64,000 nt of DNA from Synechococcus sp. (GTDB lineage Bacteria; Cyanobacteriota; Cyanobacteriia; Thermostichales; PCC-7336): the NCBI GenBank assembly GCA_051439425.1, contig JBFRWD010000153.1:1-64000 (forward strand). Reading direction: 5' to 3'. Shown here piece by piece: positions 4,268 through 56,260 of this stretch. The notes below the pieces were generated by a model that saw nothing but the letters and a program-made list of their open reading frames with translations, was not told the DNA's origin and ran no database searches. The translations under genes and the position numbers were made by a program. Each line of letters begins with the position of its first letter. Positions within the stretch are counted from its first letter, which is position 1.

Positions 4268-4957
4268 TCACTCCGCCACCAGTCCTAATTTCAAGGCTTT
4301 CACAATCGCCTGGGTACGACTTTTGACCTCAAGCTTCGAAAAAATTGCAGTCAAGTGGGCTTTAACGGTGGCGACGGTGACATACAGATGCTTGGCGATG
4401 GCCTCATTCGATTCCCCTTGCACTAACCAATGCAAAACCTCCCGCTCCCGCTCGGTTAAGTTCGTCTCTTGGCAGACCTGTAGCGAATGTCCTGCGTAAA
4501 AATTAAACATGCGGAAAAATCCCGTCATTACCTCGGGGGATAAGTAAATTTCTCCCCCCATCACGGTTGAAATGGCCTCGCACAGCTGACTTGCTAACCG
4601 ATGCTTGAAGACATATCCATTGGCCCCTGCTTGCATGGCTCGATAGACACGCTCGTCTTCATGGTGGGCCGATAGCACCAAAACTTTTCCGTTGTAGGCG
4701 CCTTTTTTCAACCCCAACAGGACATCGACGCCATCATCCGCAGCTAATTCCATATCCAATAACGTCAATGCTGGATGCTGTTCGAAGGCAAGCTTTAGGG
4801 CTTGGTTGGGTGACACAGCCTCACCCACCACTTGAATCTGTCCTAATTCCCTCGAACTGAATAGCTCCAGTAACGTACGTAACCCTTGCCGAAATAAGGG
4901 TTCGTCATCCACTAACAGTAAAGAAAGGGGTGGGGGCTGGAGCATGAGTGTTGGCAT
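4268..4957 (-). CDS. NarL/LuxR-family response regulator
   Basis: REC LLVDDEP...LLDMEL; LuxR HTH LTEREREVL...NEAIAKHLYVTVATVKAHL. Confidence 0.95.
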   Translation of the reverse strand: MPTLMLQPPPLSLLLVDDEPLFRQGLRTLLELFSSRELGQIQVVGEAVSPNQALKLAFEQHPALTLLDMELAADDGVDVLLGLKKGAYNGKVLVLSAHHEDERVYRAMQAGANGYVFKHRLASQLCEAISTVMGGEIYLSPEVMTGFFRMFNFYAGHSLQVCQETNLTEREREVLHWLVQGESNEAIAKHLYVTVATVKAHLTAIFSKLEVKSRTQAIVKALKLGLVAE

Positions 4958-4975
4958 TAAAAAACAAATAGAGGA

Positions 4976-6307
4976 CTAATGGATGACCGAGGGTTTATTA
5001 ATCGTGAAGCAAAACTGAGCCCCACCTTCAGACAACGATTGACACCCAATATCTCCACCGTGCTCCCGGATAAAGCCTCTGGCGATCGCCAATCCCAATC
5101 CATGTCCCCCAGGGCGGCGGGAATAGTGTGGCAAGAAAGCGGATTTGAGATCTTCAGAACTCAAGCCAGGGCCAAAATCGGTAATCTTGACGGATATGTT
5201 GTGGTGTAATTGCGTCCAATCGCAGGTAATGGCAGCACCATACGGGCTGAAGTGAATGGCATTATTCAGAAGATTTTCGAAGACCTGCTGAATCTGCGAG
5301 CGGTTGACCCATACTTGCTGAGTTTCATCCGGAACTGTTATGCACAATCGCTTGACTCTCCAATGGTGTTGCAGACCGGCGATCGCATCTAGCGCTATGG
5401 CACGCAAATCACAGAGAGTTCTTTCACTCTGAGTTTCCGGACTGGTCTGAAACAGTGACAAGCGTTTATCCATGTCTCGAATCGTTGCTTGAATCGCTTC
5501 GGCCTGTTTCCGTAAGTTCCCAGCTGGAAGCTGCAAAAGTAACGTATCGGCAAAGAGTTCGATTGCTGCTAGGGGATTGCGCAGTTGATGCTGAACTTTG
5601 CGCAATCGCTGTTCTACCTCTACAGCTTGTTCCTGAGAATGGGACCGAGCAGCCTCTAAATAATCACGTAAGAGATGAACCCGTTGATTGACTGATTTTT
5701 GCTGAGATGGGGTCAGCGGACATTCTGTTGCAATAAGTAAATGCTCGTCGCCATCAACGGCATGATTTAGGAAACAGGCATATACATATGCTTCAGTTCG
5801 CTGGCTGACACTCTGTCCGGAGTCAGGTTGAGAGCGATTGGCTGGCGACAATAAAACCAGGTTGGGGTGTAGTCTCGTACCGGATAGTTGCTCGCAACGA
5901 ACGGGAGATCGAACAGCGGCCATTAGCTGCTTAAATCCTTCAGCCCTGAATCCATCGGCCCATTGCCAGCGACCCCTTTGGGCATCGTAAAAAACAATTC
6001 TTACCCCCAAAGCTGCTAGCTGGTCGGATAGTTCTAAAGCCTGCCGATGGCAGACGCTCGATACATTTTCCGTTGGTGCACAAGGCGAATCTGAGCTGTA
6101 CGCAATCGTACTAGTTTTTTTAATTGCGATATTGTTAATTGCGATATTATTTTCAGCAACATTATTTACAGCAAAATTATCTACAGCAACATTGCGCCTG
6201 TCTCGTCGAGATACGACATTGGGATGATGTGAATATTCCTCATCACAAGTGGACTGTCCACCAAAAACAACAGCCTGACGTCGATCGTTCAAGAGAGACA
6301 CATCCAC
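4976..6307 (-). CDS. Cytoplasmic histidine kinase
   Basis: H-box HQLRNPLAAI, N-box QVFENLLNNAIHF, DFGPG, GHGLGLAI; start position uncertain. Confidence 0.88.
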   Translation of the reverse strand: MDVSLLNDRRQAVVFGGQSTCDEEYSHHPNVVSRRDRRNVAVDNFAVNNVAENNIAINNIAIKKTSTIAYSSDSPCAPTENVSSVCHRQALELSDQLAALGVRIVFYDAQRGRWQWADGFRAEGFKQLMAAVRSPVRCEQLSGTRLHPNLVLLSPANRSQPDSGQSVSQRTEAYVYACFLNHAVDGDEHLLIATECPLTPSQQKSVNQRVHLLRDYLEAARSHSQEQAVEVEQRLRKVQHQLRNPLAAIELFADTLLLQLPAGNLRKQAEAIQATIRDMDKRLSLFQTSPETQSERTLCDLRAIALDAIAGLQHHWRVKRLCITVPDETQQVWVNRSQIQQVFENLLNNAIHFSPYGAAITCDWTQLHHNISVKITDFGPGLSSEDLKSAFLPHYSRRPGGHGLGLAIARGFIREHGGDIGCQSLSEGGAQFCFTINKPSVIH

Positions 6308-7110: not shown

Positions 7111-7341
7111 GTGCCAGCATCTAACTCCTGCGTGCAATCTCCCGTTGTCAATTCGGCATTTGGTATCGATTTGAACTCGCTGAGCGCCGAAGAGATTGCG
7201 GGGCTTGGGGAGACCGCAGAACGGATATTGAATGACCCGTTGTTGCTGCAGCAACTAACCGATCGCGTCTATCGGTTGCTACAGGACGATTTAGCTCGGC
7301 AGTCGGAACGAGGGCTTGGGAGGCGATCGCATGGCAGATGA
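7111..7341 (+). CDS. Small eCIS-associated hypothetical protein
   Basis: GTG at 7111 preceded by AAGGAG; overlaps the tube gene start; C-terminal helix LTDRVYRLLQDDLARQSERG. Confidence 0.6.
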   Translation: MPASNSCVQSPVVNSAFGIDLNSLSAEEIAGLGETAERILNDPLLLQQLTDRVYRLLQDDLARQSERGLGRRSHGR

Positions 7342-7867
7342 TAGTCCCCAACTCGATTACGTCACGACCAATCGGTTTTACGTTGAAATTGAAAACCGCA
7401 TCACTGCGTCCTTTTCGGAATGTAGTGGCGTCAGCTTTCAGGTGAAATGCGATAAGCACATGGAAGGTGGGGTCAACGACCAGCAGCGATTGATTTTGGG
7501 CCAGACAGAATTTTCGGACATCACCCTCAAACGGGGCATTACGGATGACTTGATATTTCTGGAGTGGATAGGAAAGTTGCTGGAGGTTCGCCGGGGCAAT
7601 ACTCGGCTGAAGGATCTGCGCCGCAACATCAATATTTTGTCCTTTAACCAAGCGGGGGAGACCATGCAGTGCTGGACGCTGATTGGGGCGGTTCCAGTTG
7701 GCTGGCAAGGCCCCAGCTATAGTGCGGATTCCAACAACGTCGCCGTCGAAGAACTCACCATCGCTTACGAAGGACTGAACGTCGCCACTGGCCAGAATCG
7801 TAACGGTAGCGGTGGTGCCCTTTATCTCGATCGCCGCGGTCCCTCTGGATACTTCTCCAGCAATTAA
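7331..7867 (+). CDS. Phage-tail tube protein (T4 gp19 / Afp1-Afp5-like) of an eCIS
   Basis: NRFYVEI, FSECSG, EGGVN, DITLKRG, W.L.GA.PV.W.GP, VAVEELTIAYE are typical gp19-like tube motifs. Confidence 0.92.
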   Translation: MADDSPQLDYVTTNRFYVEIENRITASFSECSGVSFQVKCDKHMEGGVNDQQRLILGQTEFSDITLKRGITDDLIFLEWIGKLLEVRRGNTRLKDLRRNINILSFNQAGETMQCWTLIGAVPVGWQGPSYSADSNNVAVEELTIAYEGLNVATGQNRNGSGGALYLDRRGPSGYFSSN

Positions 7868-7870
7868 GCA

Positions 7871-10800
7871 ATGTCCACCTCTCCCCCCTCCGATCCTCAC
7901 ACATCCCCCGATCCCCAGGAGTCCACCTCTCCCCCTCTCGGACTCCGAAAGCCTCTATTGCCGATGCCTCCACTCGGGCAGCGCAGCTCGTCTGCGGCCT
8001 TCCGCTTGGGTCGCCGCTCGATTACGGTTTTGGCTCCTTTGCAAGCCAACCACTGGAGGGCAGAACGGGGAGCGCGTACTGCTGTTCTGCAACCGCTATC
8101 CATCAACACTCTTCCCCGTGTCAATCGCAACAACGAACCGCTCTTCGCTGTTGGCAACACACCATCGGAATTGCGCGAGGATGAGAGTCCAAGCACTCCA
8201 CCAATACCAACCCCGAATGCTCCGACCGGTCTCCAGCATCAAGACCGAGAAACAATTGCCCCCGCTCAACACGTTGATGCTCCCCAAGCACAGACGAATC
8301 AAGGGCCTTCCTCACTACAGCTGAAATCACTCTCTCCGAGTTCATCTGACAACCCGAAAGGCCATCAGGAACGCCATTCAGCTAACACCGATACAAACAG
8401 TGGAGCTTCGGACGAAGACCGGCAGCAAACGCCAACAACTCAGGCAGTACCACAATCAGACAGACCCTTCCATACTCAACCAACAATAGAATCCCCCGCG
8501 CTGCCTACGAATTCCCTGCAGCGACACTCTGCAACAACTCCTTCGCCCTCAGCAGCTAATTCCCCCTTGCCAGACCAGCCCGCCCCTATTGCCACATCGG
8601 GCTCCTCCCAGCAATCATCCATTGAAGACAGCCCGCAACTTACCCACAGCGATCTTCACCCTGCGGCAGAAACAGTAGACTCCCAGATTCAAGAAAGTAG
8701 TGAGTTCTCTCCAACCCAAGCAGGGCAGTCATCCATCGCGAATCCTCCGCCAACGGGCGATCGCCACCAACTACCTCAACCGCCTTCAACTGTCCAACGC
8801 CAAGTCTCTTCAAAAGCTCCCCAATCTCCATCTCCACGCACTGACACCGGCACCGGCACCGGCACCGACACCAACACCGACAGCCTGTCTGCGTCCCAAT
8901 CATCGTCACAAGCGCACGGAGAGGTTCACCAGCGATCGCCCCTCCATCCCTCTGAATCTTCAGTTGTAGTACGTCAAACTGCCGCATCATCTCCAAACAA
9001 CGAATCTGCAGCACAGACCTCTTTCGAGAAATCTAGCGGGACATCGCAAGGGCAGAGCGGACAAGTGTCCTCCAGCGATCGCCCCACGCCTTCTAGCCAT
9101 CCCGACAACCCGTCTCCCAAAGCCCAGCCCAAGCCCCAATCAGTTCACCCAGAGCGCAGAACGACGCACCCTTCAGCATCAACTTTTTCAGGGGCGGATT
9201 CTTCAGGGTCAAACTCTTCCGAATCGGCGTCGGAACAATTAGCGTCTGAAGTTAGCAGCCAAAACTCTCCAACCCCAACGATTCACCCCGTTCAGCCTCA
9301 ATCTAGCGAGCGGTCTTCGGCACCTCCAGTTAGCACGTCCTCCTCTCCACAAATCTCCACGACCCAGGCATTCAAAAAAGAGGCCTACAAAGAATCAGGC
9401 CATTCATCATCACGAACGACCCCAACAAACTCGTCACCAACAACTGGAATACCTCCAACAAGCAGCAACATCACAGAAGGTGCGGCTCAACCATCGATCG
9501 CCAGCAATCCAATAACTCCAAATGCTGTAACTCCACCCGATCGAGCAATTCAGGCAAGGACAACAGCGGCTAGCAATGCAGACGAGATGCCTCCATCGCA
9601 GCACCCATCCCTTTCGAATGAGGCGGAACAGAGACGGCAGGAGCAACCGGAGATCGCAGCAAGTGCCAGCACTGAACTATCAAAGTCCCCAACTGAGCAA
9701 ACATCTGAAACCACAATCCAGCGGGGCGCAGATAAATCAACAGAGCAATCTGCAGTCGTCGAACACGAACTCCGTGGCGGCAGCCCAAATAGCCCGAACA
9801 TTCAACATCATCAGCCAGCTCCCGAGATCGGTTCAGCCAGTCCTAAACAGTTACAAGCGTCTTCAACAGATACGTCATCAACCAATGCTGAATCTCCAGC
9901 CAGCGATCGCCCAGAATCACCGATCGCCCAGCGAGCCCAATCTCCATCCACTCAACCAGCCGTTTCCAGTCAATCTTTTGCGAATACAGTTAGTTCTTCA
10001 AATTCATCCAGCACGCCCTCAAATTCGTCCAGTCCGGCACCATCCCCTTCCACTCCCAACATTCAAAAAGCGTCCAACCAGCCCTCTGCAAGCCAAGCGA
10101 AGGAAGCGACAACTACTTCTATTCGCTCATCTAAAGGCTTGAATTCTTCGGGCAATGCAACCAATCAGAAAGATGCTGCTACGCCAAGCGGTGAGTCTCA
10201 AACTCAGCATTCGTCATGCCAGTCTCCAGCCAGCCAACAGTCAATCCAAGCAAAGCCACAAGAGGCGGCAGAAAAAAATGCTCAAATACCGTCCTCTGAG
10301 GAGCTAAACAGAACATTCAATCCCCCATTTCAAGGCGCATCCAAGCAATCACCTGAACCTGAACCTGAGGGAGCTACAGATACTCCTATACCTTCATCCG
10401 CAGGTCTGATATCCTCGGATATTTCCTCCCAACGGGCCAATCAATCTACACCCATCGATGCACCCTTGGTGCGCCAGTCTTCCTCGCCCACTTCATCTCT
10501 CCCCAGCCAGACAGAATCCCCCAACTCTGACCCAGTCACCACGACCTCAGTGACGGCAGGCAGTCCCTTAAGTCACGAGGGATCGCCCAAAGCGCTATCA
10601 GAAGCCCCAAACCCGTCGGTTCGCGGAGTTCAGCGATCGCTCCAACAGCCACCAGACGCTCCAACAGAGGAATTGGCAACTCATTCTGCGCAGGTATCCG
10701 CAGACTGCCCCCTTTCAAGTGCGACCAAACAGCTGAGGGCTAACGATACCGAAATCGACACATCACCACCCCCAACATCCGACAACACACCGCTGCCAAG

Positions 10801-13800
10801 TCCATCCCAAATTTCGCCCAAGCCCATCCAAACGAGTGCAGCATTGCAGCCCACCGAAAGTGGCGCTGTACATCCAATCGGGTCAATCCCTCCCGAAAAA
10901 CAACCGGCTAGGCAACCAGCAACGAATACACCAAGCAATTCAGAGATAGCAGCCTCAGGAAATCGAGCAGCTACGTCCAGTTCTCAAACCCCTCCGTCTG
11001 AGCAAGCATCCGTTACAGAACATTCCTTGCCACAATCTGCGGAAGATAAAGATCGCTCAACTGCTGTCCCAAATAATGCTCAGAAACCGCCGTTGATTCA
11101 GCGCATACCGTCGTTGGTGACCACCGCCTTTAACGCCATCGGCACCCTAATTACCAGCTCTCTGTCCGAGCCACCACCAACCGAATCCACGCCGAGTCCA
11201 GCAGCAATCACTCAAGCAGATGAGATACAGCGATCGCCTGACACACCAGCAACATCCACCATCCAATCCCAATCAGCGGATGCCCCCTCTACCGACATAT
11301 CTACGCCTGTATCTGACCAATCATCTTCCGAGCAATCCCAAGCTCAGTCAAAAGCACTAACTCCAACTCTTGACCAAGCATCACAACGGACTGAAGTTGA
11401 GTCTCACAGCTCTGAGTCTGCTTCACCAGGATCGGCACGGCCAAGCGTAGCGACCCCACTGTCTTCTCCTAGCGATCCCATTCAGCGTTCGGAAGAACCT
11501 CTCAGTCTGGATTCAGAAGAACGGGACACTTCAGGTAGAACCAGTCAGCAATCGGCGGCCGAGAGTTCACAACTTCAAGCCGAAAGACATATACAGACCG
11601 AAAATATAGAGTCTCCAGATACCGGCAACCACTCATTGGTGGCCGCAGAAGCAACTGGCAAACAACATCCCCAACATCACACCACCCAACCAACAGTTCC
11701 TCAAACCAGGTCCATCCAGCAGTCTGCGATTGAGCCAAATGGTTCAGCTCCGCCAGTTTCTCACCTAGATTCCACTAACTCCGCCCCCCAAACCACCTCA
11801 ACAGAAATAACAACAGCAGCAGAGCATTTATCGACAAACTCAGAGGCCAACTCCGATCGCACACCATCAAACAGCCCAACAGATCGCTCACAATCTTCAT
11901 CCCAAACTGGTAAAGACGTTAGTCCAGACCAATTAGACAAATCTGCCCCCCTTCAAGCCACTTCTCCAGGAACAGCAAACCGTTCTATCAATTCCACCCC
12001 TTCTGCAATCCGCGACAACCAAAATAGCGACTTCGGTAATGCCACCGCCGCGAGTTCTCATTCTCAAGTTTCAGAAGATAGCAGCAGCGGTCGCATTCAA
12101 ACCCAGCCCCTTCATGCAGCACAACCAAACATTCATGAGGGCATTAAAGATACATCTGCATCTCCACTAGCTGCCGATTCGATAGCACAGCGATCGTCCG
12201 ATCTCCCCTCGCACCCACTCGACCAGAAACCCTCTCCCTTCTCTGCCTCAGACACGTCTCCCGATCGACCAATCTCGACTGAGTCATCCACCCACTTAGG
12301 CAGTACGTCCGAACTTCAAAACAGCTCGCAAGTTACAAAACAAAACCCCTTTCTTTCCCCCCAATCAACTAATCAACCTCATCAACCGAAACAATCGCCA
12401 AATCCAGGATTCTCCAGCGAGGCAACAACCGCGATCGCTGACGAGGTCACACAGCAGCAAACCGCACCAGAAGAACTTTCCTCACGATCGCAATCTGGGA
12501 CAAACGCACCAACCATCAACACTGCCCATCCACCTGCCCCGCCTCGAGAGGCAGCAGTCACTCATTCCAGCCCGGGGGATACAAATACAGCTAGTTCCCC
12601 TTCAATCCAGCCTAAAACCGATGCATTTAGTTCTGAAGATGGAGCAAGCAAAAACAATCCAGACTCAACCGGCAATCCTGCCCTCAGCCCTGTAGAACCG
12701 GTTTCCGAGACAGCAGGTTCCACGCCAAAACGCGTCAAGCCTCAAAACAGTGCCTCTTTTGAGATCACTCCACATCAGCTTGTAAGCACAGACAGCGACA
12801 CCGTTCAGCCCCCCCTCACATCGCAAATCAAGAGCGAACTACCTCCTCCCTCTACTCACTCGCTATCCGAGAAAAATACACCAGCCTTTCTGCAAGAAAC
12901 CAACAGCGACTCTGCCACTGGTAAGCCGGTCGTATCTGACCCGACGCAGAGCCTCTCTCAAGAGAGCGCGATCGCCCAAGCGCCAACTCAGCAACGAGCG
13001 ACGAGATCTTCGGATGCTCCTTTTTCCCTCAACAGCCCTGAACATCCAACAATTCAGTCCCAGCCAGCAGCCCAGAACCTCCACGCTGAAGATTCCCAAA
13101 CGGTACCAGCACCAATTGACCCCCCTTCAAGCAGCTCGGTAGAAGACTCAAGTACGACAACAGATAAGCCTGCTAGTCATCAGAGCGCATCACCATCCCC
13201 CGAGATCGCGCAGAGGACATCGCAGGTTAGCCCTCAAAGCCCGAGCGAGCGACCTCATCAAGAAAGCCAGTCCGTCTCCAAAACAGGTGCGATCCAACAA
13301 TCATCGGCCCAGCCCAGCCAAACCACCTCTCTGCCCGCAACTGACCAAACTGAAACCACCCAAGCGATTGAAGCTAGACCGCAGCAATCTCCGATTCCTA
13401 ACCCGACTATCCAACACCGGTCTATTCACCCCAACCATGAAAGTGCTAAGCCCAGCGAGTTAGATACCGACCATCAATCCTCTGAAAATTATCAACCCTC
13501 TGGAAACCAAGATGAGGACCAACATTCACCCTTCCCCCAACTGCCTCGCATTCTCAAACCCATCACCATTCTCAAACCGCTCGCTACCCCTAGTTCCCCT
13601 TCACCCTCAAGTCCCCCCGAATCCGTTACGCAAGCCCAGCCTGCAGAGGGCAATCTCCCATCCGATCCCCCCATCTCTTCTGTTACTCAAAACACTCCCA
13701 ATATTCCACCCTCAACCAACAGTTCGTCCACCAACACCACCAATTCACAATCCCCCAGTCCGTCTGGCCCCAAAACGAGCAAACGGGAAATACCTCTCCC

Positions 13801-14107
13801 AGAACAATGGTCTGGCCTTGCAGAACTCCTATCCGAGACATCGGTATCCGTAACGCCTCCAACTCCTACCACCAGCCATTCCCCGCCATCAACTCGCAAT
13901 GCTTCGCCCCCAACAATTCAGCCTCAATGGGATGAAACCTTATCCGTAGACTCTGCCGACAGTGCATCTCCAGACACAACCGAGCCCGAGCAACTGAATG
14001 CCTATTTGGATACTCTGGCTCGCGAGGTCTATAACCTGTTGCGATTGAAGCTAGAGCGCGATCGCGAACGAAACGGCAATTCCTACACCGGTCGTCTGCC
14101 CTGGTAG
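7871..14107 (+). CDS. Giant Ser/Pro/Thr/Gln-rich disordered eCIS-associated protein (2078 aa)
   Basis: 6.2-kb open frame starting 3 nt after the tube gene stop; low complexity; C-terminal helix LDTLAREVYNLLRLKLERDRERNG. Confidence 0.8.
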   Translation: MSTSPPSDPHTSPDPQESTSPPLGLRKPLLPMPPLGQRSSSAAFRLGRRSITVLAPLQANHWRAERGARTAVLQPLSINTLPRVNRNNEPLFAVGNTPSELREDESPSTPPIPTPNAPTGLQHQDRETIAPAQHVDAPQAQTNQGPSSLQLKSLSPSSSDNPKGHQERHSANTDTNSGASDEDRQQTPTTQAVPQSDRPFHTQPTIESPALPTNSLQRHSATTPSPSAANSPLPDQPAPIATSGSSQQSSIEDSPQLTHSDLHPAAETVDSQIQESSEFSPTQAGQSSIANPPPTGDRHQLPQPPSTVQRQVSSKAPQSPSPRTDTGTGTGTDTNTDSLSASQSSSQAHGEVHQRSPLHPSESSVVVRQTAASSPNNESAAQTSFEKSSGTSQGQSGQVSSSDRPTPSSHPDNPSPKAQPKPQSVHPERRTTHPSASTFSGADSSGSNSSESASEQLASEVSSQNSPTPTIHPVQPQSSERSSAPPVSTSSSPQISTTQAFKKEAYKESGHSSSRTTPTNSSPTTGIPPTSSNITEGAAQPSIASNPITPNAVTPPDRAIQARTTAASNADEMPPSQHPSLSNEAEQRRQEQPEIAASASTELSKSPTEQTSETTIQRGADKSTEQSAVVEHELRGGSPNSPNIQHHQPAPEIGSASPKQLQASSTDTSSTNAESPASDRPESPIAQRAQSPSTQPAVSSQSFANTVSSSNSSSTPSNSSSPAPSPSTPNIQKASNQPSASQAKEATTTSIRSSKGLNSSGNATNQKDAATPSGESQTQHSSCQSPASQQSIQAKPQEAAEKNAQIPSSEELNRTFNPPFQGASKQSPEPEPEGATDTPIPSSAGLISSDISSQRANQSTPIDAPLVRQSSSPTSSLPSQTESPNSDPVTTTSVTAGSPLSHEGSPKALSEAPNPSVRGVQRSLQQPPDAPTEELATHSAQVSADCPLSSATKQLRANDTEIDTSPPPTSDNTPLPSPSQISPKPIQTSAALQPTESGAVHPIGSIPPEKQPARQPATNTPSNSEIAASGNRAATSSSQTPPSEQASVTEHSLPQSAEDKDRSTAVPNNAQKPPLIQRIPSLVTTAFNAIGTLITSSLSEPPPTESTPSPAAITQADEIQRSPDTPATSTIQSQSADAPSTDISTPVSDQSSSEQSQAQSKALTPTLDQASQRTEVESHSSESASPGSARPSVATPLSSPSDPIQRSEEPLSLDSEERDTSGRTSQQSAAESSQLQAERHIQTENIESPDTGNHSLVAAEATGKQHPQHHTTQPTVPQTRSIQQSAIEPNGSAPPVSHLDSTNSAPQTTSTEITTAAEHLSTNSEANSDRTPSNSPTDRSQSSSQTGKDVSPDQLDKSAPLQATSPGTANRSINSTPSAIRDNQNSDFGNATAASSHSQVSEDSSSGRIQTQPLHAAQPNIHEGIKDTSASPLAADSIAQRSSDLPSHPLDQKPSPFSASDTSPDRPISTESSTHLGSTSELQNSSQVTKQNPFLSPQSTNQPHQPKQSPNPGFSSEATTAIADEVTQQQTAPEELSSRSQSGTNAPTINTAHPPAPPREAAVTHSSPGDTNTASSPSIQPKTDAFSSEDGASKNNPDSTGNPALSPVEPVSETAGSTPKRVKPQNSASFEITPHQLVSTDSDTVQPPLTSQIKSELPPPSTHSLSEKNTPAFLQETNSDSATGKPVVSDPTQSLSQESAIAQAPTQQRATRSSDAPFSLNSPEHPTIQSQPAAQNLHAEDSQTVPAPIDPPSSSSVEDSSTTTDKPASHQSASPSPEIAQRTSQVSPQSPSERPHQESQSVSKTGAIQQSSAQPSQTTSLPATDQTETTQAIEARPQQSPIPNPTIQHRSIHPNHESAKPSELDTDHQSSENYQPSGNQDEDQHSPFPQLPRILKPITILKPLATPSSPSPSSPPESVTQAQPAEGNLPSDPPISSVTQNTPNIPPSTNSSSTNTTNSQSPSPSGPKTSKREIPLPEQWSGLAELLSETSVSVTPPTPTTSHSPPSTRNASPPTIQPQWDETLSVDSADSASPDTTEPEQLNAYLDTLAREVYNLLRLKLERDRERNGNSYTGRLPW

Positions 14108-14197
14108 CTCAGACATATAACTCAGCCAGATAACTCAGTCAGCTAGCTGAACTATCCCGCACCCTTACTTCACTTCAGTCATCGCGAGGCCGACACC

Positions 14198-14707
14198 ATG
14201 CCCGAATATCCAGTCAAAGCAGAATTGGTGGCCAAAGATGGCGGCACTACCGTCACCTTTATGTTTAACCCCACCGAACTCAGCTTCAGCCGCAGTATGC
14301 AAACCAACGCCTCCAGCGGTGCCCGCACCGATAAAGGCATTCCAAAAATTAGCTTTGGCTACTTCAATCCCTATAGTCTCAGCATCAGCAACATCCTGTT
14401 CGACACCTACGAATCAGGGGAAGATGTCATGGACAAGTACATAGATAAACTGCGCGAAGCATTGGAGTTCGCCAAAAACACCGATCGCCCCCCCATCTAC
14501 TTATTCTCGTGGGGCAATAAAGAATATCTGCGTTGCTTCGTCAAAAGCTTGAGCTACAAACTGACCATGTTTCTACCGGATGGCACTCCAGTGCGGGCCG
14601 TCGCCGATCTGTCTCTCGAAGAATTAGACGAATGGGACCCACCCCCTTCTGTTGGCACTCCTAGCCCCAGCAGCAGTCAGCGGCAATCGGAATCATCCCG
14701 CCGATAA
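14198..14707 (+). CDS. CIS tube initiator/hub protein (Afp7-like, no LysM)
   Basis: FMFNPTEL, LFDTYE, RPP..LF.WG, LTMFLPDGTPVRA.ADL motifs. Confidence 0.85.
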   Translation: MPEYPVKAELVAKDGGTTVTFMFNPTELSFSRSMQTNASSGARTDKGIPKISFGYFNPYSLSISNILFDTYESGEDVMDKYIDKLREALEFAKNTDRPPIYLFSWGNKEYLRCFVKSLSYKLTMFLPDGTPVRAVADLSLEELDEWDPPPSVGTPSPSSSQRQSESSRR

Positions 14708-14724
14708 TTGCAGACACGAAATTG

Positions 14725-15222
14725 TTAGCCGCCTATTAAGACAGTCGTCAATCCGTTTGTGATTTTGTTGGGTGGTCCTACTGCTTCAACAATGGTGTTT
14801 CCGACAAAACAAGCGGGCAACCCATTGATCAACACCGTTTTGCTTCCATTAACCACCACCCCCGGCCCGTGGGGTGGAATGGGCAGAGGTTGAGAACATA
14901 CATGAATATCGGCTCCTGCAGCGGTGGAAGAAATCAGTGTCCCCATCGCTACGGCAGAGGCAGCCTTTGTGGCTTCTTCGGCAGCCTTGGCTGCAGCCTT
15001 TGAAGCGGGTTCGGGAGCTGCCGCCGTTGCTTTCTCTGCCACCTGAATAGCCGTGTCGGATGTTTTCTTGGCGGATTTTAGCGAGCTAGCGACGGCCACC
15101 GGTACACCTCGCCAAGCGGGAAGATTACCGATTAAGACATTAAAGCTGCCCGGACCGGGACTGAGAGTTGGAGGTAAGGGGTGCTGGACAAAATCCCCTA
15201 CTCTGGCGGCTGGTTTACCCAT
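14725..15222 (-). CDS. PAAR-domain spike-tip protein with Ala/Lys-rich insertion
   Basis: GKPAARVGD, GSFNVLIGNLPAWRG, HVC...PHGPG, GSKTVLINGLPA. Confidence 0.9.
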   Translation of the reverse strand: MGKPAARVGDFVQHPLPPTLSPGPGSFNVLIGNLPAWRGVPVAVASSLKSAKKTSDTAIQVAEKATAAAPEPASKAAAKAAEEATKAASAVAMGTLISSTAAGADIHVCSQPLPIPPHGPGVVVNGSKTVLINGLPACFVGNTIVEAVGPPNKITNGLTTVLIGG

Positions 15223-15262
15223 TGTTTAACCTCTTGAGACGTTAGCTAGTCGGTGACTTGAG

Positions 15263-17074
15263 TTAGTTGAGTTTGATTAGCGAACCTTTGACCGTGACGA
15301 TACCGGAGGCAGAAATTTCAATGCCGCTGGCTTTGATAGAAATTTTGTTGCTACCCACCTTGAGATTAATGCTGGTACCGGCCTTGATATCGATCGCATT
15401 CGAGCTGCCATTGAGCACCACTGAATTACTACCTTGGCCGGTCTTAATTTCAATTTTTTTCCCTTGGTCGTCCATCTTCAACACGTGGCCGCCCTTAGTT
15501 TTCACTTCAATGGATTTATCTGAATCGTTGAGATACAGTTTGTGACCGCCCGCCGTATCTACATACGTTCCCTTTTTGGAGCCACCCTTATCTTCTTCCA
15601 CAAATTGCAATTCATGACCGGTACGCGTCTTGACCGTACGCAAGCGAACTTTGCCATCGGCCACAGAATCCGTCACTTTTTCCGGAGGCGCATCTTTGCC
15701 GTTCCACAGTCCGCCTAGCACAAACGGCCGGTGAATATCTCCGTGTTCGAACCCCACCAATACTTCGTCATCCACTTCCGGCAAGCAATCAAACCCGCGA
15801 TTTTTGCCAGCCCCGATCGCCACTACTCTCGCCCAATTGCTTTCGTGATCCTCCGTCAACGTCGGAAACTTGACCCGCACGCGCCCCCACTTTTTCGGAT
15901 CGTTATTGTTCGTTACCTTTCCTACCAAAAAGGTTTGCCCTGGTTGCAAGCGGGTAGACGGAGATAAAACAGACAGCAGATCGCCATTGCGCAACCCTCG
16001 CGCCTCAAACTCGGTGCTGTAGACGCGATCGCCCAATACATGCCGAGTTTCGGTGATGTAATACTGCCCACTGTACTTGCCCATATTCTTGAGCTTGACC
16101 ACCTTGCCCGGACGAATCTCGGGGTTGCCCTCCCCCTTTGCTTCGGCCCGAATAAACTCCCCCCCCAATTCATCCGCAAGAGCCTGGGCCATCGTGTCGG
16201 CTTCTTTTTGGGTGAATGTGGGGCGATCGACCACGATGGTGGTGGGTTTCGAAGGCTTGCTGTCAAAGGCCGTACTGGTTGTTTTGCCCTCTCCTAACTC
16301 GGTACTCGTCAGTACGGATGGTGCGGATTTTTTGGCCACAATGGCGGTTTTTTTCTCGACATCCCAGCCCCTCACCTCCACACCGCTCACTTGTTCGGCA
16401 CTGGTTGCCCTGACGCGGCAGGTGTGCACATCTTGCAACCACTCCAACTCGATCGTGGTGCCTTTGCTGGGCTTGCGAAAGTTAAGCTTGCCATCTTGAA
16501 CAAACAGCTCGAACCCAATACGGGCCGCGCGTTCCCGCAAGAACTCCATATTGGTCTGATTTTCTTGAAATACATACTTGTGCGCAGAGCCACTGCTATC
16601 GGCCTTACCCACCTGAATCCCTATTTCGCCGACAACTTTCCGGACAATATCGGTGTCGCTCATATCCTGAAACGAGCGGTTGTAGCGACCTCGGTGTAAG
16701 CGATGGGATAGGTCGTAGCCGCGCACAATTACCGGGGCCTGACCTTGACTATTGAATTGGGCTTCAACCGCGGTAATTTCTCCGTCAAACACTGTGCCCT
16801 GGGCCGCGTCCGAGAACTCGGCATCGTCGGTAGTACTGGAGACAAAGCCAATTTTGATTTTGTTGCCGATGGAAAAGTCTTTGTCGTAGCGCCAAACTTT
16901 GTCGGTATCCCCTCGCCCTTCAAAATAATCGTTGCGCATTACTAAGGTAAATGCGTTGGGCAGGTGCAAGCTTTCTTCCACCTCAATTTGCAGGATGTCA
17001 TCAATGAGTTTGTCAGTAGCCTTCTTGCCGTCAATCTCTAACAGCGGCTTGGCAATGTAAGTGGTTGCAGCCAT
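15263..17074 (-). CDS. vgrG: VgrG/Afp8-like spike protein
   Basis: gp27-like N-terminus (QENQTNMEFL.ERA.RIG); gp5 OB fold NDPKKWGRVRVKFP, WARV, LPEVDDEVLVGFEHGD.RPFVLGGLWN; C-terminal beta-helix repeats. Confidence 0.93.
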   Translation of the reverse strand: MAATTYIAKPLLEIDGKKATDKLIDDILQIEVEESLHLPNAFTLVMRNDYFEGRGDTDKVWRYDKDFSIGNKIKIGFVSSTTDDAEFSDAAQGTVFDGEITAVEAQFNSQGQAPVIVRGYDLSHRLHRGRYNRSFQDMSDTDIVRKVVGEIGIQVGKADSSGSAHKYVFQENQTNMEFLRERAARIGFELFVQDGKLNFRKPSKGTTIELEWLQDVHTCRVRATSAEQVSGVEVRGWDVEKKTAIVAKKSAPSVLTSTELGEGKTTSTAFDSKPSKPTTIVVDRPTFTQKEADTMAQALADELGGEFIRAEAKGEGNPEIRPGKVVKLKNMGKYSGQYYITETRHVLGDRVYSTEFEARGLRNGDLLSVLSPSTRLQPGQTFLVGKVTNNNDPKKWGRVRVKFPTLTEDHESNWARVVAIGAGKNRGFDCLPEVDDEVLVGFEHGDIHRPFVLGGLWNGKDAPPEKVTDSVADGKVRLRTVKTRTGHELQFVEEDKGGSKKGTYVDTAGGHKLYLNDSDKSIEVKTKGGHVLKMDDQGKKIEIKTGQGSNSVVLNGSSNAIDIKAGTSINLKVGSNKISIKASGIEISASGIVTVKGSLIKLN

Positions 17075-17458
17075 GGCGAATGACGATACCGAATCTCGCT
17101 TGAACGGTATCCCACATCTCTTGTTGAGACCATTGTCTAAACGTGGAGATGCTTGCTGGGGACGGAGCGCTTCAGATTTCGGCTTGTTGCTAGGCCTTCC
17201 CTCAATAAGCTAACTAGCTTACAGATAGAGGTGAGGCTAGGCTTCTCGAAATGCAGTCAACAGATCAAGTCCACACAGATACCAGTTCACACAGATGAAA
17301 GTCCAAACGAATACAACTGCAGCGATCTGCGCAACCATTAAAGGCTAGAGGGTGCGAAAGCCCTTTCCCCAAGCAAGACTAGAGCTTCACATTCAAATTG
17401 CACAACACGCAAAGCCCCTTTGTTGACTAGCAAAAACCGTTAGTATTTCCAACCATTT

Positions 17459-18481
17459 ATGAAAACGTTTGTAAAAACAGGTCGGATATTATTTCTTGAA
17501 TTCTCTGGCCCCAGACCGCAGCTCTTAACCTCACTGTTCGGCCAGATGGGGTTTATCAAGCTTGGAGAACGCCTCGACAAACCGATATCGGTGTACGGCC
17601 AAGGGGACATTCGTTTCATTTGCAACCCAAGCAATGGAGGAAATGCAGAACGATTCCGCCAGGTGCATGGCAGAGGGGTTTCCGCCATCGCCTTCACAGT
17701 AGACAACTCCTGGGAAGCATTCGTAGCTGCGATAAAGCTTGGTGCCAGCCCAGCCGAAGTGACCGATTACGATATTCCAGCCATTCGCGGTGTCGGCAAC
17801 TCGTTAATTTACCTGGTTGACGCAGATCGCGCACAGCGCCTGTTTGCCTCGTTCAATTGTCAGATGACGCCCTGTGCAGAGTCGGTTGGTCTCCACGATA
17901 TCGATCACATTACCCACAATCTTAGGGTGGGCGGAATCAACCGATGGCGATTGTTTTACGAAACCGTGTTTGGATTTAGCAGCGTCAGAAGCTTCAACAT
18001 TACCGGTCAACTGACCGGCCTGGTCAGCGAAGTTGTTGCTAGCCCCAATGGCAACATCACCATTCCCCTCAACGAGTCTAAGGACGACAAGTCTCAGATC
18101 GCAGAATTTATCAACGACTACAACGGGGAAGGCGTGCAGCATGTGGCCCTACTGAGCCGGGATATTTATCAGTCGGTCAACAGGCTGCAGAATAACGGCA
18201 TCGCCTTTCAAGACACTCCGGATACCTATTACGAGAGGGTTGACGAGCGCATTCCCAATCATGGGGAAGATGTGTCTCGATTGCGCCAGTTCCGCATCTT
18301 GATCGACTCCGAGCCCGAATACGGTGAAGGGACTCTGCTGCAGATCTTCACAAAAGAAAGCATCGGTCCAATCTTTTTTGAATGCATCCAGCGCAAGGGA
18401 AACAGGGGATTCGGCAACGGCAACTTCCAAGCCCTGTTCGAATCGATCGAGCGAGACCAGCAATGTCGTGGGGTCATCTGA
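17459..18481 (+). CDS. hppD: 4-hydroxyphenylpyruvate dioxygenase
   Basis: Fe ligands in IDHITHN, GEGVQHVAL and IFFECIQRKG..GFG.GNFQALFESIE. Confidence 0.93.
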   Translation: MKTFVKTGRILFLEFSGPRPQLLTSLFGQMGFIKLGERLDKPISVYGQGDIRFICNPSNGGNAERFRQVHGRGVSAIAFTVDNSWEAFVAAIKLGASPAEVTDYDIPAIRGVGNSLIYLVDADRAQRLFASFNCQMTPCAESVGLHDIDHITHNLRVGGINRWRLFYETVFGFSSVRSFNITGQLTGLVSEVVASPNGNITIPLNESKDDKSQIAEFINDYNGEGVQHVALLSRDIYQSVNRLQNNGIAFQDTPDTYYERVDERIPNHGEDVSRLRQFRILIDSEPEYGEGTLLQIFTKESIGPIFFECIQRKGNRGFGNGNFQALFESIERDQQCRGVI

Positions 18482-18546
18482 ATTGAGCACAGAAGGCGAT
18501 CGCCAACAGCTAGAGCCAACTCAATCCTCCCGTCCCAACATTGGCA

Positions 18547-31625: not shown

Positions 31626-31790
31626 TTATCTATAGTGGATAAAAACGGATATAGAGCATCCTTACGAAGGATATTGCAGACGATTTTTCGGGGTGCATCC
31701 CGAAAAATCGTACCGGCCTATAGGGTGTGGCGAAAACCCCTTCTGTCCGTCTGAATCGGAGTGAGGTTCCGTCGAGGACAGGCCGGGAGT

Positions 31791-33107
31791 ATGCGACCAC
31801 GAGGTCAACGGACGAATTTGTCTGAACGATTAGACATCGGTGAACGTGCTGCCAACGGTCAAAGCGATCGCCAGATCGCGGCAGAACTGGGCTGCTCTAG
31901 ATGGACAGTCCGAAAGTGGAGACGTAGGTTCCAGGTTCATGGACGGGAAGGACTTAGCAGGACACAAGGACGTCCAGTCACTGGCATTCTCAGTACCTTC
32001 CCAAGTGACTTGGCTGATGCCATCATCGAAATCCGTCAGGCCCATCCCGGCTGGGGAGCTGATTCCATTTTGCTGGAGCTTCATCTCGTACAAGGCTGGT
32101 CTAAATCCCAACTTCCCCATCGCTCGCGAGTGGCAGCATTTCTCCACCAGAAAGGACTCACTCGTCGCTATGAGTCTGGTGGCCTGCCTGAACCCAAACG
32201 GCAAACGGCGACTAAAGCTCATCAGGAATGGGAAATGGATGCTCAAGGGGCAACCCATGTGGAGGGAGTCGGCTCCGTTAGTCTGATTACCATTACCGAT
32301 GTGTACAGTCGGGTCAAAGTGGAAAGTTATCCCAGCCTCCAAAGCTGTAACCCCAGCACCGAAGACTATCAACTGGCCCTGCGTCGGGCTTTCATGAGTT
32401 TTGGACTTCCCCAACGGATAACCCTCGACCACGGCACCGTCTTCTACGACAACACCACTCCATCTCCTTGGCCGACTCGATTGCACATGTGGCTGCTGGC
32501 TTTGGGAGTAGACGTCTGTTTCACTCGCAAACGACGACCCACTGACCACGCCATCATTGAACGCACTCATCAAACCATGACCCAACAGGCCCTGAGTGGG
32601 CAAAGCTGGCCGAGTTCAGAAGCCTTGTGGGAAGGACTAGATTGTCGCCGCGAGGCTCTCAACCACCACTTACCCGTGCGGACGTTGGACAGACGTTCTC
32701 CTCTACAAGCATTTCCGGAAGCCAGCCATTCCCAGCGCTATTACAGCCCCGAGCGAGAGCCAGAGCTGCTTAACCCCCATCGCCTGTATGACTATCTGGC
32801 TGGTGGCCGCTGGTTTCGGCGCACCAACGGCAATGGCAACGTCCGGATTGGTGGATACAGCTACTATCTCAACTACCAACTGGACCGGAAGGAAGTCGAA
32901 CTGAGCTTCGATCCCAAAACGGTAGAATTCATTTGTCTAGTTGAGGGAGAATCAATTGCCCGCAGAGTCCGAGCCAAAGGGCTCAGTGTCACTAATTTGT
33001 TGGGGGAGATGGAGCAGTTTCTACGTCTGCCCAGCTATCAACTATCTCTGCCTTTTAGCCAGCAGGATTGGCGCAGTCTTCACTATGTTCAGTGCCAGGC
33101 GGCTTGA
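31791..33107 (+). CDS. DDE transposase (HTH + rve integrase core, IS481/Mu-like)
   Basis: HTH SDRQIAAELGCSRWTVRKWRRRF; HPGWG; catalytic triad WEMD / ITLDHG / IIERTH; alternative GTG start at 31761. Confidence 0.88.
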   Translation: MRPRGQRTNLSERLDIGERAANGQSDRQIAAELGCSRWTVRKWRRRFQVHGREGLSRTQGRPVTGILSTFPSDLADAIIEIRQAHPGWGADSILLELHLVQGWSKSQLPHRSRVAAFLHQKGLTRRYESGGLPEPKRQTATKAHQEWEMDAQGATHVEGVGSVSLITITDVYSRVKVESYPSLQSCNPSTEDYQLALRRAFMSFGLPQRITLDHGTVFYDNTTPSPWPTRLHMWLLALGVDVCFTRKRRPTDHAIIERTHQTMTQQALSGQSWPSSEALWEGLDCRREALNHHLPVRTLDRRSPLQAFPEASHSQRYYSPEREPELLNPHRLYDYLAGGRWFRRTNGNGNVRIGGYSYYLNYQLDRKEVELSFDPKTVEFICLVEGESIARRVRAKGLSVTNLLGEMEQFLRLPSYQLSLPFSQQDWRSLHYVQCQAA

Positions 33108-34240: not shown

Positions 34241-34577
34241 TTCCCCGAATGAGCGAGGAGTCTATTGGATCTCCCGAGTTCCCGACTCTGCCTTAATGAC
34301 GTGCCACGGTCTCAGACCCCGGTGGACCCTCGGGGGCCATGGCGATAGGCTCCTCCTGTGTAGCCTTCCGCTCTTCCTAAGGCGTCGGCATCCACGGTTG
34401 TTATTCATACGGGGCTCAATCCCTTCACGCTTGCGCATTGCGGCCCATCATTTCCCTGTGTACGCTTCACTGACGACGTTACCGACGCCAGCGCAACACT
34501 CGGTATCCGTGCCTTGCCAGGGCTTACGGAGATAGGACTTTCACCTAACAGACAGAGCCGAGCGAAGCTCGGCACAC
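34241..34577 (-). ncRNA. 5' fragment (domain I) of a group II intron, truncated
   Basis: Minus strand begins GTGTGCCG (GUGYG consensus), followed by domain-I-like motifs AGGTGAAAGTCCT, GGTAAC...TGAAGCGTACACAG, GATTGAGCCCCG, GCGGAAGGC, GGAACTCGGGAGA; no RT ORF or domain V. Confidence 0.75.
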
Positions 34578-53035: not shown

Positions 53036-53156
53036 TCCTTACGGCCTTTCCAGACTACTTTCTTTAGTCATTACCAGTTGTTGAGGCGATCGCCACTATT
53101 CGCCGATCGCCTGCAACGGTTCAACTATTGTGTGTTGTAGTCTCGGGCATTTTGTT

Positions 53157-54224
53157 ATGACAAACTATCCGACAATTCGTGCCGCAGCGGCCCAAATCAG
53201 CCCGGTGTTATTTAGCCGGGATGGTACTACCGCCAAGGTGCTAAATGCAATCGGCGATGCAGCCAAACAAGGAGCGCAGCTTATCGTCTTTCCCGAGACA
53301 TTTGTGCCCTACTATCCTTACTTCTCCTTTATTCAACCTCCGGTGTTAATGGGGACAGAACACATGCGGTTGTACGAGCAGGCTGTGACAGTACCCGGCC
53401 CAGTGGTAGATGCAGTCTCTCAAGCGGCAAAAGCCTACGACATGGTGGTGCTGCTGGGTGTAAACGAACGGGATGGGGGCTCTCTTTACAACACTCAATT
53501 GTTGTTTGATGCGGATGGCTCGTTACTGTTAAAGCGGCGCAAAATCACGCCCACCTACCATGAGCGCATGGTGTGGGGGCAGGGGGATGGTGCTGGCCTC
53601 ACAGTCCAGAAGACTGCGATTGGAAAGGTGGGCGCTCTGGCTTGCTGGGAGCATTACAACCCTCTGGCTCGCTATGCCCTCATGACCCAGGGGGAAGAGA
53701 TTCACTGTGCCCAATTTCCTGGCTCGATGGTGGGGAATATCTTTGCCGAGCAAATGGAAGTAACCATTCGGCACCATGCTCTGGAATCAGGGTGTTTCGT
53801 CGTCAATGCCACGGGGTGGCTGACCTCCGAGCAAATTGCCCAGATTACGGACGACCCCAATCTGCAGCGGGTGCTGACGGGGGGATGTCACACCGCCATT
53901 GTCAGTCCGGAAGGGAAACATTTGTGCGAGCCGATTCGGGAGGGGGAGGGATTGGCGATCGCCGATTTGGATTTCTCCCTGATCACTAAACGCAAGCGCA
54001 TGATGGACTCCGTCGGTCACTATGCCCGCCCCGAGTTGCTGAAGTTATGGATGAATTCTGAACCGCAGCCCCCGGTAGCTGGCGGTGAGGGGAGCTCGTC
54101 TGTCACGATCGCACAGCCTAATAGCGGTTTATCAGAATCCACTTCAGTTACCCCTCTCAATACCACCTCAAATGGCGCGTCAGGAGACAGTCCGATGGGT
54201 TCTCTCACGCTTCAGCAATCGTGA
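53157..54224 (+). CDS. nitC: Nit6803-family nitrilase (NitC)
   Basis: Catalytic E-K-C in [33 protein letters not shown]. Confidence 0.95.
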
Positions 54225-54343
54225 AAGCGCTATGCATGGGCTCGGACATAACTTATTCGAGTTCATGTGAGAGTTGAAGCCGTTTTCGCCTTCTCAATCT
54301 GACAGCGATTGACTGCACACAGCTAACGAATTCTGCAAAGTCG

Positions 54344-55471: not shown

Positions 55472-55475
55472 GTTT

Positions 55476-55570
55476 GGTCTTTTGTCATTTGTCCTTGGTC
55501 ATTTGTCCTTGGTCACTCGCAGTCGGTCTTTACCAATGACTTCTTCACCAATGACTGGTGACCCATGACC
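55476..55570. repeat. STRR-like heptamer tandem repeats
   Basis: TTGTCAT/TTGTCCT/TGGTCAT units followed by complementary CAATGAC-like units. Confidence 0.7.
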
Positions 55571-55615
55571 CCTCAACCCTTCTCAAATAGCTAAAACCTT
55601 TCCCCGTCTCCCCCT

Positions 55616-56134: not shown

Positions 56135-56145
56135 TGGCAGGTGTG

Positions 56146-56260
56146 TGTCCTTTGTCCTTCGTCCTTTGTCATTAGTCAGTGGCCACAAGCCTCTCTACCA
56201 ACCAATGACTAATGACCAGTGACCAGTGACCAGTGACCAATGACTAACCACCAATCCCCG
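56146..56260. repeat. STRR-like heptamer tandem repeats
   Basis: TGTCCTT units then (CCAGTGA/CCAATGA)n and CCAATCCCC. Confidence 0.75.

Follow-up and report, generated by a model that had tools for sequence, protein, structure and literature searches.

In the window examined here, the whole 64-kb stretch of Synechococcus sp. DNA that forms contig C153 of its assembly, a gene module at positions 7,111–17,074 very probably encodes the hub of one extracellular contractile injection system (eCIS) whose locus has been split; in this reading it is neither a relic nor a spare module. Its predicted products are two tube-initiator layers, a spike and a spike tip, and genes for the remaining parts of a contractile injection system (CIS) are found on other contigs of the same genome. 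Between the two initiator genes lies a giant open reading frame (ORF) for a disordered protein, whose conserved C-terminal helix defines a family of its own.

The source assembly, G000, comprises 182 contigs (4.8 Mb, 96% complete). The Pfam scan of the window (E<=0.01) covered 42 ORFs, namely the listed ORFs of at least 150 aa apart from those clearly nested inside longer frames, with shorter ORFs outside this individual scan; the whole genome was covered by six-frame family searches and by phmmer runs that used the proteins of the window as queries. An alignment of the CIS_tube protein led to 32 related loci from one-per-species genomes (22 cyanobacterial, 10 non-cyanobacterial), whose ORFs were annotated by phmmer with G000 proteins as seeds. 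Two genomes of the same genus served for close comparison, G004 (closed, one contig of 5,066,637 bp) and G006 (contig C96), together with X2, a 3822-nt contig (record 14) of a strain about 3–7% divergent, from another study's run.

The baseplate hub

The module is made up of the following features:

7111–7341, plus strand: small76, 76 aa, first gene of the module; GTG start with AAGGAG 6 nt upstream
7331–7867, plus strand: gp19-family tube paralogue, 178 aa (PF06841, E=2.5e-35)
7871–14107, plus strand: giant ORF, 2078 aa, starting 3 nt past the stop of the tube paralogue; no Pfam match at E<=0.01
14198–14707, plus strand: CIS_tube protein, a Cis7/Afp7-type tube initiator, 169 aa (PF19266, E=1.1e-21, the sole family found)
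14708–14724, no strand: 17-bp spacer between the convergent stops, the inversion breakpoint
14725–15222, minus strand: PAAR spike-tip protein (PF05488, E=9.4e-12, residues 116–165)
15263–17074, minus strand: VgrG-like spike, Cis8/Afp8 (PF04717, E=1.7e-28; PF05954, E=3.4e-8)

As an earlier note on this DNA had described, genes on the plus strand meet those for PAAR and VgrG on the minus strand, the stop codons of the CIS_tube and PAAR genes being 17 bp apart; coordinates and Pfam bear this out. They also bear out its statement that the 64 kb hold no sheath, gp25, Baseplate_J or AAA ATPase gene: no sheath, gp25, Baseplate_J, Pvc16 or Afp15-type AAA+ protein is among the 42 scanned ORFs (fibre families were not searched), and beyond the hub genes the scan detected no further CIS gene. 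The small76 gene overlaps the gp19-family gene by 11 nt; its product belongs to no Pfam family, and in 13 related loci a homologue directly precedes the Cis5-like gene. The PAAR protein is 88% identical to that of G006 and contains, between an N-terminal PAAR motif and the C-terminal PAAR domain, some 60 inserted residues rich in A, K and S (roughly 45–105).

Among solved structures, the chain closest to VgrG is 9gtr_q of the Streptomyces CIS (E=3.7e-55, full length), followed by All3320 of the Anabaena thylakoid-anchored CIS (tCIS; 6.3e-36). The CIS_tube protein matches 9gtp_P (1.2e-7), 8kea_P, described as 'tube initiator' (5e-7), and 7aeb_M (1.2e-6). For the gp19 paralogue the best match is 9rce_I (4.8e-12; chain not identified), then a 140-aa tail-protein chain of 9gtp (1.2e-11), All3324 (3.5e-10), Afp5 (4.3e-10) and Pvc5. 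In relatives this gene is found directly upstream of initiator and spike, separate from the sheath-linked tube genes, and in G000, too, the main tube genes lie beside the sheath on other contigs, away from the window. It is read here as a tube-initiator layer of the Cis5/Afp5/Cis1b type, which corrects its earlier label as the tube. Judged by these matches, the window encodes a baseplate hub of two tube-initiator layers, spike and tip, rather than 'tube and spike', and the system is probably an eCIS of the Streptomyces-CIS-like lineage.

The closest solved spike and initiator belong to CIS-Sc, the cytoplasmic CIS of Streptomyces coelicolor (PDB 9GTP/9GTR; PMC12237407, PMC10066040). According to PMC12237407, its tube-to-spike transition consists of two layers, Cis1b and Cis7, and its hub resembles that of the window in placing a tube-paralogue layer and Cis7 on a VgrG trimer; its particles are described there as uniformly 268 nm long, and no Afp14-type tape-measure gene or fibre gene is known for it, a further likeness. 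In lineage II, as reported in PMC6899500, Afp6 and Afp14 are absent or divergent and Afp14 homologues generally absent. The Streptomyces CIS genes form one cluster, in contrast to three or four loci in G000, and the Streptomyces Cis7 has a LysM domain, which in initiators of the Afp7/Cis7 type is C-terminal and makes contact with the wedges; the 169-aa initiator of the window contains the beta-barrel domain but no LysM at E<=0.01, whereas solved homologues of 227–282 aa are 'LysM domain-containing'. The Anabaena tCIS (PDB 7B5H; PMC8894136) is likewise cyanobacterial, with a hub of Cis5/Cis6/Cis7/Cis8/Cis10, but is described as belonging to a different lineage, with a contiguous 15-ORF cluster and a 50-aa Cis6, whereas the system of the window is dispersed. 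In tCIS and AlgoCIS, Cis5 and Cis7 are reported as the layers, and a Cis6 trimer plugs the spike cavity (PMC8894136, PMC8894135).

The dispersed operon

The sheath, baseplate and AAA+ genes for which the earlier note proposed searching the genome are present on contigs C33, C71, C97 and C150. The six-frame family searches of G000 locate sheath genes on two contigs alone (C33 and C71), gp25 and Baseplate_J on a single one (C97), and Pvc16_N on C71 and C150 and nowhere else; five gp19 genes are distributed over C33, C71 and C153. Contig C33 carries the sheath, three gp19 tubes and a 139-aa protein; C97 a 743-aa kinase-like/PBP_like_2 protein, gp25, Baseplate_J, Tail_P2_I and a 499-aa protein; and C150 Pvc16_N and an AAA+ ATPase at the contig end. 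VgrG, PAAR, the CIS_tube protein and the giant are each single-copy in G000 (six-frame and phmmer), and the VgrG of the window is its only Phage_base_V match. The genome therefore holds a sheath, gp19 tubes, VgrG/PAAR/initiator, gp25/Baseplate_J and Pvc16_N with AAA+, the last two being a terminator and an ATPase that are said to set eCIS apart from phage tails (PMC10020575). What it lacks is the single operon. In PMC8213781, the dbeCIS/eCIStem criterion is that genes lie within 12 kb, and Afp8 and Afp11 occur together in 98.7% of operons; here VgrG is on C153 and Baseplate_J on C97, and a distance of 0.79 Mb separates the two in closed genome G004.

Three further observations concern these contigs. 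Downstream of the sheath and tube genes, C33 (L003:10191–15643, minus strand) encodes a RelA_SpoT protein (347 aa), unknown proteins of 182 and 546 aa and an eCIS_core protein (448 aa), all candidate cargo or effector genes of the system. The edge of C88 (2–337, minus strand) holds a 112-aa fragment highly similar to the C33 sheath (1.5e-68), which could represent another copy of the sheath gene, variation between strains or a remnant of assembly. The 743-aa protein of C97, whose gene adjoins gp25, was also weighed as a possible tape measure but dismissed, since its nearest ESM-Atlas clusters (score 0.99) carry PBP_like_2; more distant clusters (0.84–0.88) are Ser/Thr-kinase and PBP_like_2 fusions.

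How these pieces belong together is best seen in L039, the locus of a cyanobacterial metagenome-assembled genome, in which the whole set forms one co-oriented operon in the order sheath, tubes, 139-aa protein, kinase-like protein, small76, Cis5-like protein, 1692-aa ORF, Cis7, VgrG, gp25, J, P2-I, Pvc16 and AAA+. The Pvc16 and AAA+ proteins of L039 score 1.6e-103 and 1e-214 against their counterparts on C150 and are far less similar to those on C71. Such loci are normally co-oriented, as the earlier note stated; in 31 of the 32 related loci VgrG stands on the same strand next to the tube initiator, the sole exception being the G006 contig. The genes on C33 (sheath and tubes), C97 (gp25, J and P2-I) and C150 (Pvc16 and AAA+) are orthologues of those flanking the module in contiguous relatives; by the L039 layout and the co-oriented VgrG of the 31 loci, the window represents the central part of an operon that has lost its original surroundings. 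Of the two options that the earlier note had left open, the evidence thus favors a split locus completed elsewhere.

In G004 the pieces are scattered over 2.4 Mb. Small76, Cis5, a 1761-aa giant and Cis7 are located at 2.017–2.024 Mb, followed by genes for a glycosyltransferase and serine hydroxymethyltransferase; the orthologous VgrG stands alone at 1.779–1.781 Mb, with no PAAR gene found within 10 kb by this query; gp25, J, P2-I and a homologue of the 499-aa protein lie at 2.563–2.568 Mb; and Pvc16/AAA+ (4.152–4.156 Mb) are divergent beside the genes for sheath, three tubes and the 139-aa protein (4.159–4.163 Mb). By analogy, C150 and C33 may adjoin in G000, which would make three loci, not four. 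Fragmentation extends to other cyanobacteria. Among the 16 of 22 cyanobacterial loci with at least 5.8 kb of sequence past VgrG, 5 have gp25/J next in the orientation of VgrG and 1 (L048) has them reversed; they were not found in 10, where the downstream DNA amounted to 5.9–8.2 kb and detection relied on phmmer with G000 seeds; in L035 a 2075-aa eCIS_core gene fills the fetched range downstream of VgrG. In non-cyanobacterial loci gp25/J come after VgrG in nine of ten, the tenth ending at VgrG. Cyanobacteria thus appear often to fragment this operon. L048 itself (a Chlorogloea sp. contig, 9330–19130) has a 195-aa 'mini' giant with two copies of the helix motif, and its gp25/J/P2-I block, inverted downstream of VgrG, represents an independent rearrangement of the same operon.

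Could the module instead be an auxiliary one, a spare initiator and spike set to be swapped into a CIS encoded elsewhere, in the manner of the orphan vgrG islands of type VI secretion systems? This had been the second option of the earlier note. It would suit the different flanks of the module in G000 and G006, and the additional compact CIS with its own VgrG that G004 and G006 carry and G000 does not. In G004 this compact CIS (L084:8244–11505, at 2.653–2.657 Mb) shows the textbook hub order of Cis5-like protein, 55-aa Cis6, LysM-bearing Cis7 and VgrG. It would also suit a second, divergent set on C71 (L004:402–10228, minus strand), consisting of a sheath, a tube, a T4_baseplate-family protein (PF12322), a 362-aa unknown, Pvc16_N, an AAA+/WHD ATPase and eCIS_core, for which no spike or wedge genes were found, G000 having one VgrG, one gp25 and one Baseplate_J; this set may use the hub of the window or be a different kind of sheath-tube device. 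However, G000 has VgrG, PAAR and Cis7 only once, so that they are essential and cannot be spares; in relatives their orthologues lie within the operon, and the module comes with no effector gene. Moreover, the VgrG and Cis7 trees agree, both placing the G000/G006 pair with G004 and sister to L030/L031/L033, and this agreement indicates that the original spike was probably inherited vertically. A swappable module is on this evidence improbable.

Still less probable is a relic, a decaying remnant of an eCIS operon from which no particles are made, the outcome that the earlier note had tied to a missing sheath and decay. The operon is indeed fragmented, the initiator is without the LysM domain of its solved homologues, and no RNA run containing positions 13900–17100 of the window was listed. 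Yet the genome holds a sheath and the full parts list, and the same scattered set is kept intact in G004. Every ORF of the module is intact, the 6.2-kb frame of the giant being open in G000, G004, G006 and X2, and dN/dS between G000 and G006 is 0.014 for the Cis5-like protein, 0.015 for Cis7 and 0.051 for VgrG, at saturated synonymous sites. These low ratios show the module genes to be in use and under purifying selection.

The convergent junction itself is no assembly artefact, because it recurs in contig C96 of G006 and because the X2 contig, from another study, bridges positions 11982–15794, from the end of the giant through tube initiator, junction and PAAR to the end of VgrG; these same two observations leave next to nothing of the notion of a chimera, a misjoin in a metagenome-assembled contig, to which the 182-contig draft state of G000 might have given rise. 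Given the 31 co-oriented loci and the single operon of L039, the layout of the window is that of an inverted VgrG-PAAR block in a fragmented operon, the result of a local, in-place inversion confined to this species group. The 17-bp spacer contains no terminator-like hairpin, and no inverted repeats flank the VgrG-PAAR block.

The giant protein and its helix family

What is the protein encoded between the two initiator genes? It is S/P/T/A/Q-rich (19% S, 13% P, 10% T, 9% A, 9% Q) and acidic (net charge −84), with a conserved N-terminus bearing PLG motifs and a conserved C-terminal helix of 29 residues, which is its only stretch of at least 28 aa free of proline and glycine. It has no transmembrane segment (maximum 19-aa hydropathy 1.11), belongs to no Pfam family, whether scanned whole or by its final 149 aa, and does not consist of tandem repeats, of which only four tiny arrays were found. 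The frame is not open by chance, because the probability of encountering no stop over 2078 codons at its own base composition is 8e-31. Its length varies between 2078 (G000), 1974 (G006) and 1761 aa (G004), and only the first ~50 and the last ~45 residues align well with G006 and G004, the G006 Cis7 being 96% identical; compared with G006, the middle shows ~20% identity in a forced alignment and no blastn similarity. The X2 indels in the gene are multiples of three (−24, +15, +12, −3, −3, +3) or compensating pairs (−1/+1, +2/+1), with two more not shown, a pattern that suggests that the frame is kept open while the sequence drifts. Directly after its stop, at 14108–14142, lies a 13-nt tandem repeat of 2.7 copies, of which X2 has one unit fewer. 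A long ORF between Cis5 and Cis7 is present in all 13 cyanobacterial loci that hold both flanks, measuring 972–2086 aa stop-to-stop in 12 and 195 aa in one.

The helix can be followed much further. A profile of the last 55 aa of the giant (A2; consensus L-E-x-L-A-x-E-x-Y-x-L-L-x-Q-R-L-E-I-E-R-E-R-x-G) matches the ORF before Cis7 in 21 of the 21 cyanobacterial loci with upstream sequence, including eight that were outside profile building, all at E<=3.4e-14. Weaker matches (1.4e-5 to 6.4e-3) occur in ORFs directly upstream of Cis5 in four non-cyanobacterial loci (Chloroflexota-type, one titled only 'bacterium', Limnocylindrales and Verrucomicrobiia); the Verrucomicrobiia match (L053) is a 68-aa ORF, the other three are A/P/G/S-rich and 605–809 aa long. 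ORFs of this composition and length, again with the motif, stand beside Cis5 in six non-cyanobacterial loci, four of them from Chloroflexi/Chloroflexia/Anaerolineaceae, one from Limnocylindrales and one from the 'bacterium'. Against 1.84 billion representatives, A2 retrieved 841 clusters at E<=1e-3, of which 331 reach E<=1e-10. Among the best 150 of the 841, which range from 70 to 3170 aa, the match in most rows reaches the C-terminus or stops a few residues short of it; 107 start with methionine (median 724 aa), and a PLG motif occurs within the N-terminal 150 aa of 66 of these. Pfam assigned no family to 49 of 52 family members, two gave spurious-looking matches and one contains a GHL10 domain. 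Of 20 family proteins inspected by name, two carry functional names ('ELKS/Rab6-interacting/CAST family protein' and 'family 10 glycosylhydrolase'), four are nameless and the others are 'hypothetical' or 'uncharacterized'; all named organisms are cyanobacteria. The GHL10 protein (P0082, 1874 aa, named as Anthocerotibacter panamensis) has this glycosyl-hydrolase-like domain at E=9.2e-15, which hints that some family members may deliver an enzyme.

The small76 protein is a paralogue of the giant with a homologous C-terminal helix: its family profile (A5) aligns with A2 at 92.4% probability (hhalign, E=5e-7). Both proteins invite comparison with Cis6, given that the gene for the giant lies where Cis6 would be expected, between Cis5 and Cis7, and that small76 is very roughly of Cis6 size (~50 aa, strand-loop-helix, in Cis6). 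For the Cis6/Alg6/Afp6 plug (PMC8894135, PMC8894136; 7b5h_AL, 7aef_t), conserved ends, a flexible joining segment and a terminal helix are described, a layout that the giant shares, but with a linker of ~1900 residues as against ~10 in Alg6. Membership of giant and small76 in the Cis6 family is not shown by sequence, and the likeness is one of position and layout only. The 55-aa Cis6 of G004, in turn, finds Asl3322 (7b5h_AL, 4.7e-12) and Algo6 (7aef_t, 8.7e-7). With the last 99 aa of the giant, the ESM Atlas returned unnamed small proteins only (score 0.90–0.91, with recognition just under threshold), which is a lead only.

Two kinds of known proteins offer further analogies. The first is Tme of the Streptomyces davawensis CIS which, according to PMC11126660, is the largest ORF of its cluster and co-purifies with, or binds, spike and tube initiator. 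Like Tme, the giant is the largest, mostly disordered ORF upstream of the initiator/spike genes; both are of the >2000-aa class, disordered (~70% in Tme) and encoded directly upstream of these genes. Tme, however, is described as having DUF4157 (eCIS_core), transmembrane helices, coiled coils and a C-terminal endonuclease, whereas the giant has no Pfam, transmembrane or enzymatic domain. The second kind are the Afp14/Alg14 tape measures (Rybakova 2015, as cited in PMC6899500), which are lumen proteins of highly variable length whose C-terminus is expected to bind the baseplate. Three copies of the giant would occupy ~829 nm3, equivalent to 66 nm of a fully packed 4-nm lumen or ~165 nm at 40% packing, a geometry that allows the giant to lie inside the tube. 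Whether the C-terminal helix anchors the giant in the spike/initiator hub, with the protein filling the lumen as a tape-measure analogue and/or an ejected filler, is, by these analogies, a question on which we see the scales as evenly balanced.

Alternatively, the giant could be a common mucin-like protein, secreted or displayed on the cell surface, or else an effector and nothing more, riding in the operon with no structural role. Its S/P/T-rich low complexity and the near-neutral evolution of its middle are what such a protein would show, and the glycosyl-hydrolase-like domain of P0082 is what effectors can have. Yet its N-terminus has no hydrophobic signal-like stretch (judged by eye, no predictor) and it is without a transmembrane segment; its gene stands between or beside initiator genes in the 13 cyanobacterial loci, with a shifted position in non-cyanobacterial ones; and only the termini are conserved, including a helix in common with small76, which points to docking rather than to an enzymatic function. 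We consider a non-structural giant unlikely.

Neighbourhood, assembly and significance

The module is bordered on the left by genes for two histidine kinases and a GerE-type response regulator and on the right by one for hydroxyphenylpyruvate dioxygenase (Pfam). The histidine kinase and GerE (LuxR-type) response regulator genes directly to the left (4268–6307, minus strand) are divergent from the module; GerE regulators adjoin 25.8% of eCIS loci, according to PMC8213781. This adjacency is not kept in G004, and G006 has no DNA similarity upstream of 7245. About 15 kb to the right lie mobile elements, an rve-type integrase with helix-turn-helix domains (31761–33107, plus strand) and a group II intron D1–D4 match (RF02005, 135.8 bits; 34307–34541, minus strand). 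A 238-aa protein with a C-terminal TIR_2 domain (24187–24903, plus strand; E=7.7e-15) is a possible defence or signalling gene. The genes for a nitrilase (CN_hydrolase) and for radical SAM, GNAT, AIR-synthase-related and GT4 glycosyltransferase proteins at 53130–58464 (plus strand) form a run that presumably resembles the conserved 'Nit1C' nitrilase cluster. Promoter and terminator scans gave no excess over shuffled sequence (5 vs 7.0 and 15 vs 12.0).

The evolutionary scenario that we propose starts from a single ancestral operon of sheath, tubes, 139-aa protein, kinase-like protein, small76, Cis5, giant, Cis7, VgrG, PAAR, gp25, J, P2-I, Pvc16 and AAA+. In this genus it would have been broken up, with VgrG-PAAR inverted in place to yield the convergent junction; since the pieces are under purifying selection, the particle is presumably assembled from the products of three or four loci. 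The C-terminal helix of the giant would dock in the hub in the manner of the Cis6 helix and of the C-termini of tape measures, and the acidic disordered chain would lie in the tube lumen, itself described as negatively charged, where it might set or buffer tube length or be ejected as filler; small76 would use the same docking site.

Several points weigh against this scenario. The C71 sheath set is without a baseplate of its own, and the hub of the window could therefore serve two sheath sets. G000 consists of 182 contigs, of which C150 and C33 may adjoin, as the corresponding genes do in G004. The missing RNA runs mentioned above count here as well. On the side of the giant, sequence searches of the PDB with A2 and A5 gave chance-level helical matches only and no CIS chain, and hhalign found no resemblance of either profile to the G004 Cis6 (probability 0.15% for A2, 0.36% for A5). 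Known eCIS tape measures have an alpha-helical middle, according to a preprint (10.64898/2026.05.27.728243), whereas the giant has a proline or glycine at least every 29 residues; it is thus not helical like them, and it has no Afp14 match in Pfam. As a ruler, at the 0.229 nm per residue given in the same preprint, it would call for a particle of ~476 nm, which is unusually long.

Going further, the giant and small76 might be the missing length-setting or lumen parts of an eCIS lineage devoid of Afp6 and Afp14, the disordered chain acting as an entropic ruler and/or filler and small76 competing with it to set the number of long chains per particle, and cyanobacteria might routinely build such particles from dispersed genes, so that cluster-based censuses undercount them. 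This wider proposal is speculative, and we would rate it as doubtful in its entirety. In the literature surveyed, neither split cyanobacterial eCIS loci nor a disordered giant protein between initiator genes are described; the supplementary tables of dbeCIS/eCIStem, not opened for this survey, could list some such loci.

What follows for the biology of these systems? Catalogues of eCIS define loci by gene proximity (PMC6899500, PMC8213781). With a complete, selectively maintained parts list dispersed as it is here, cyanobacterial systems may be missed by such catalogues or be called partial. Of more interest within the module is a protein family, uncharacterised and disordered, that is recognised by its C-terminal helix; with its 841 clusters and its place always beside initiator and spike genes, it is a candidate length-setter or lumen content for CIS-Sc-like systems.

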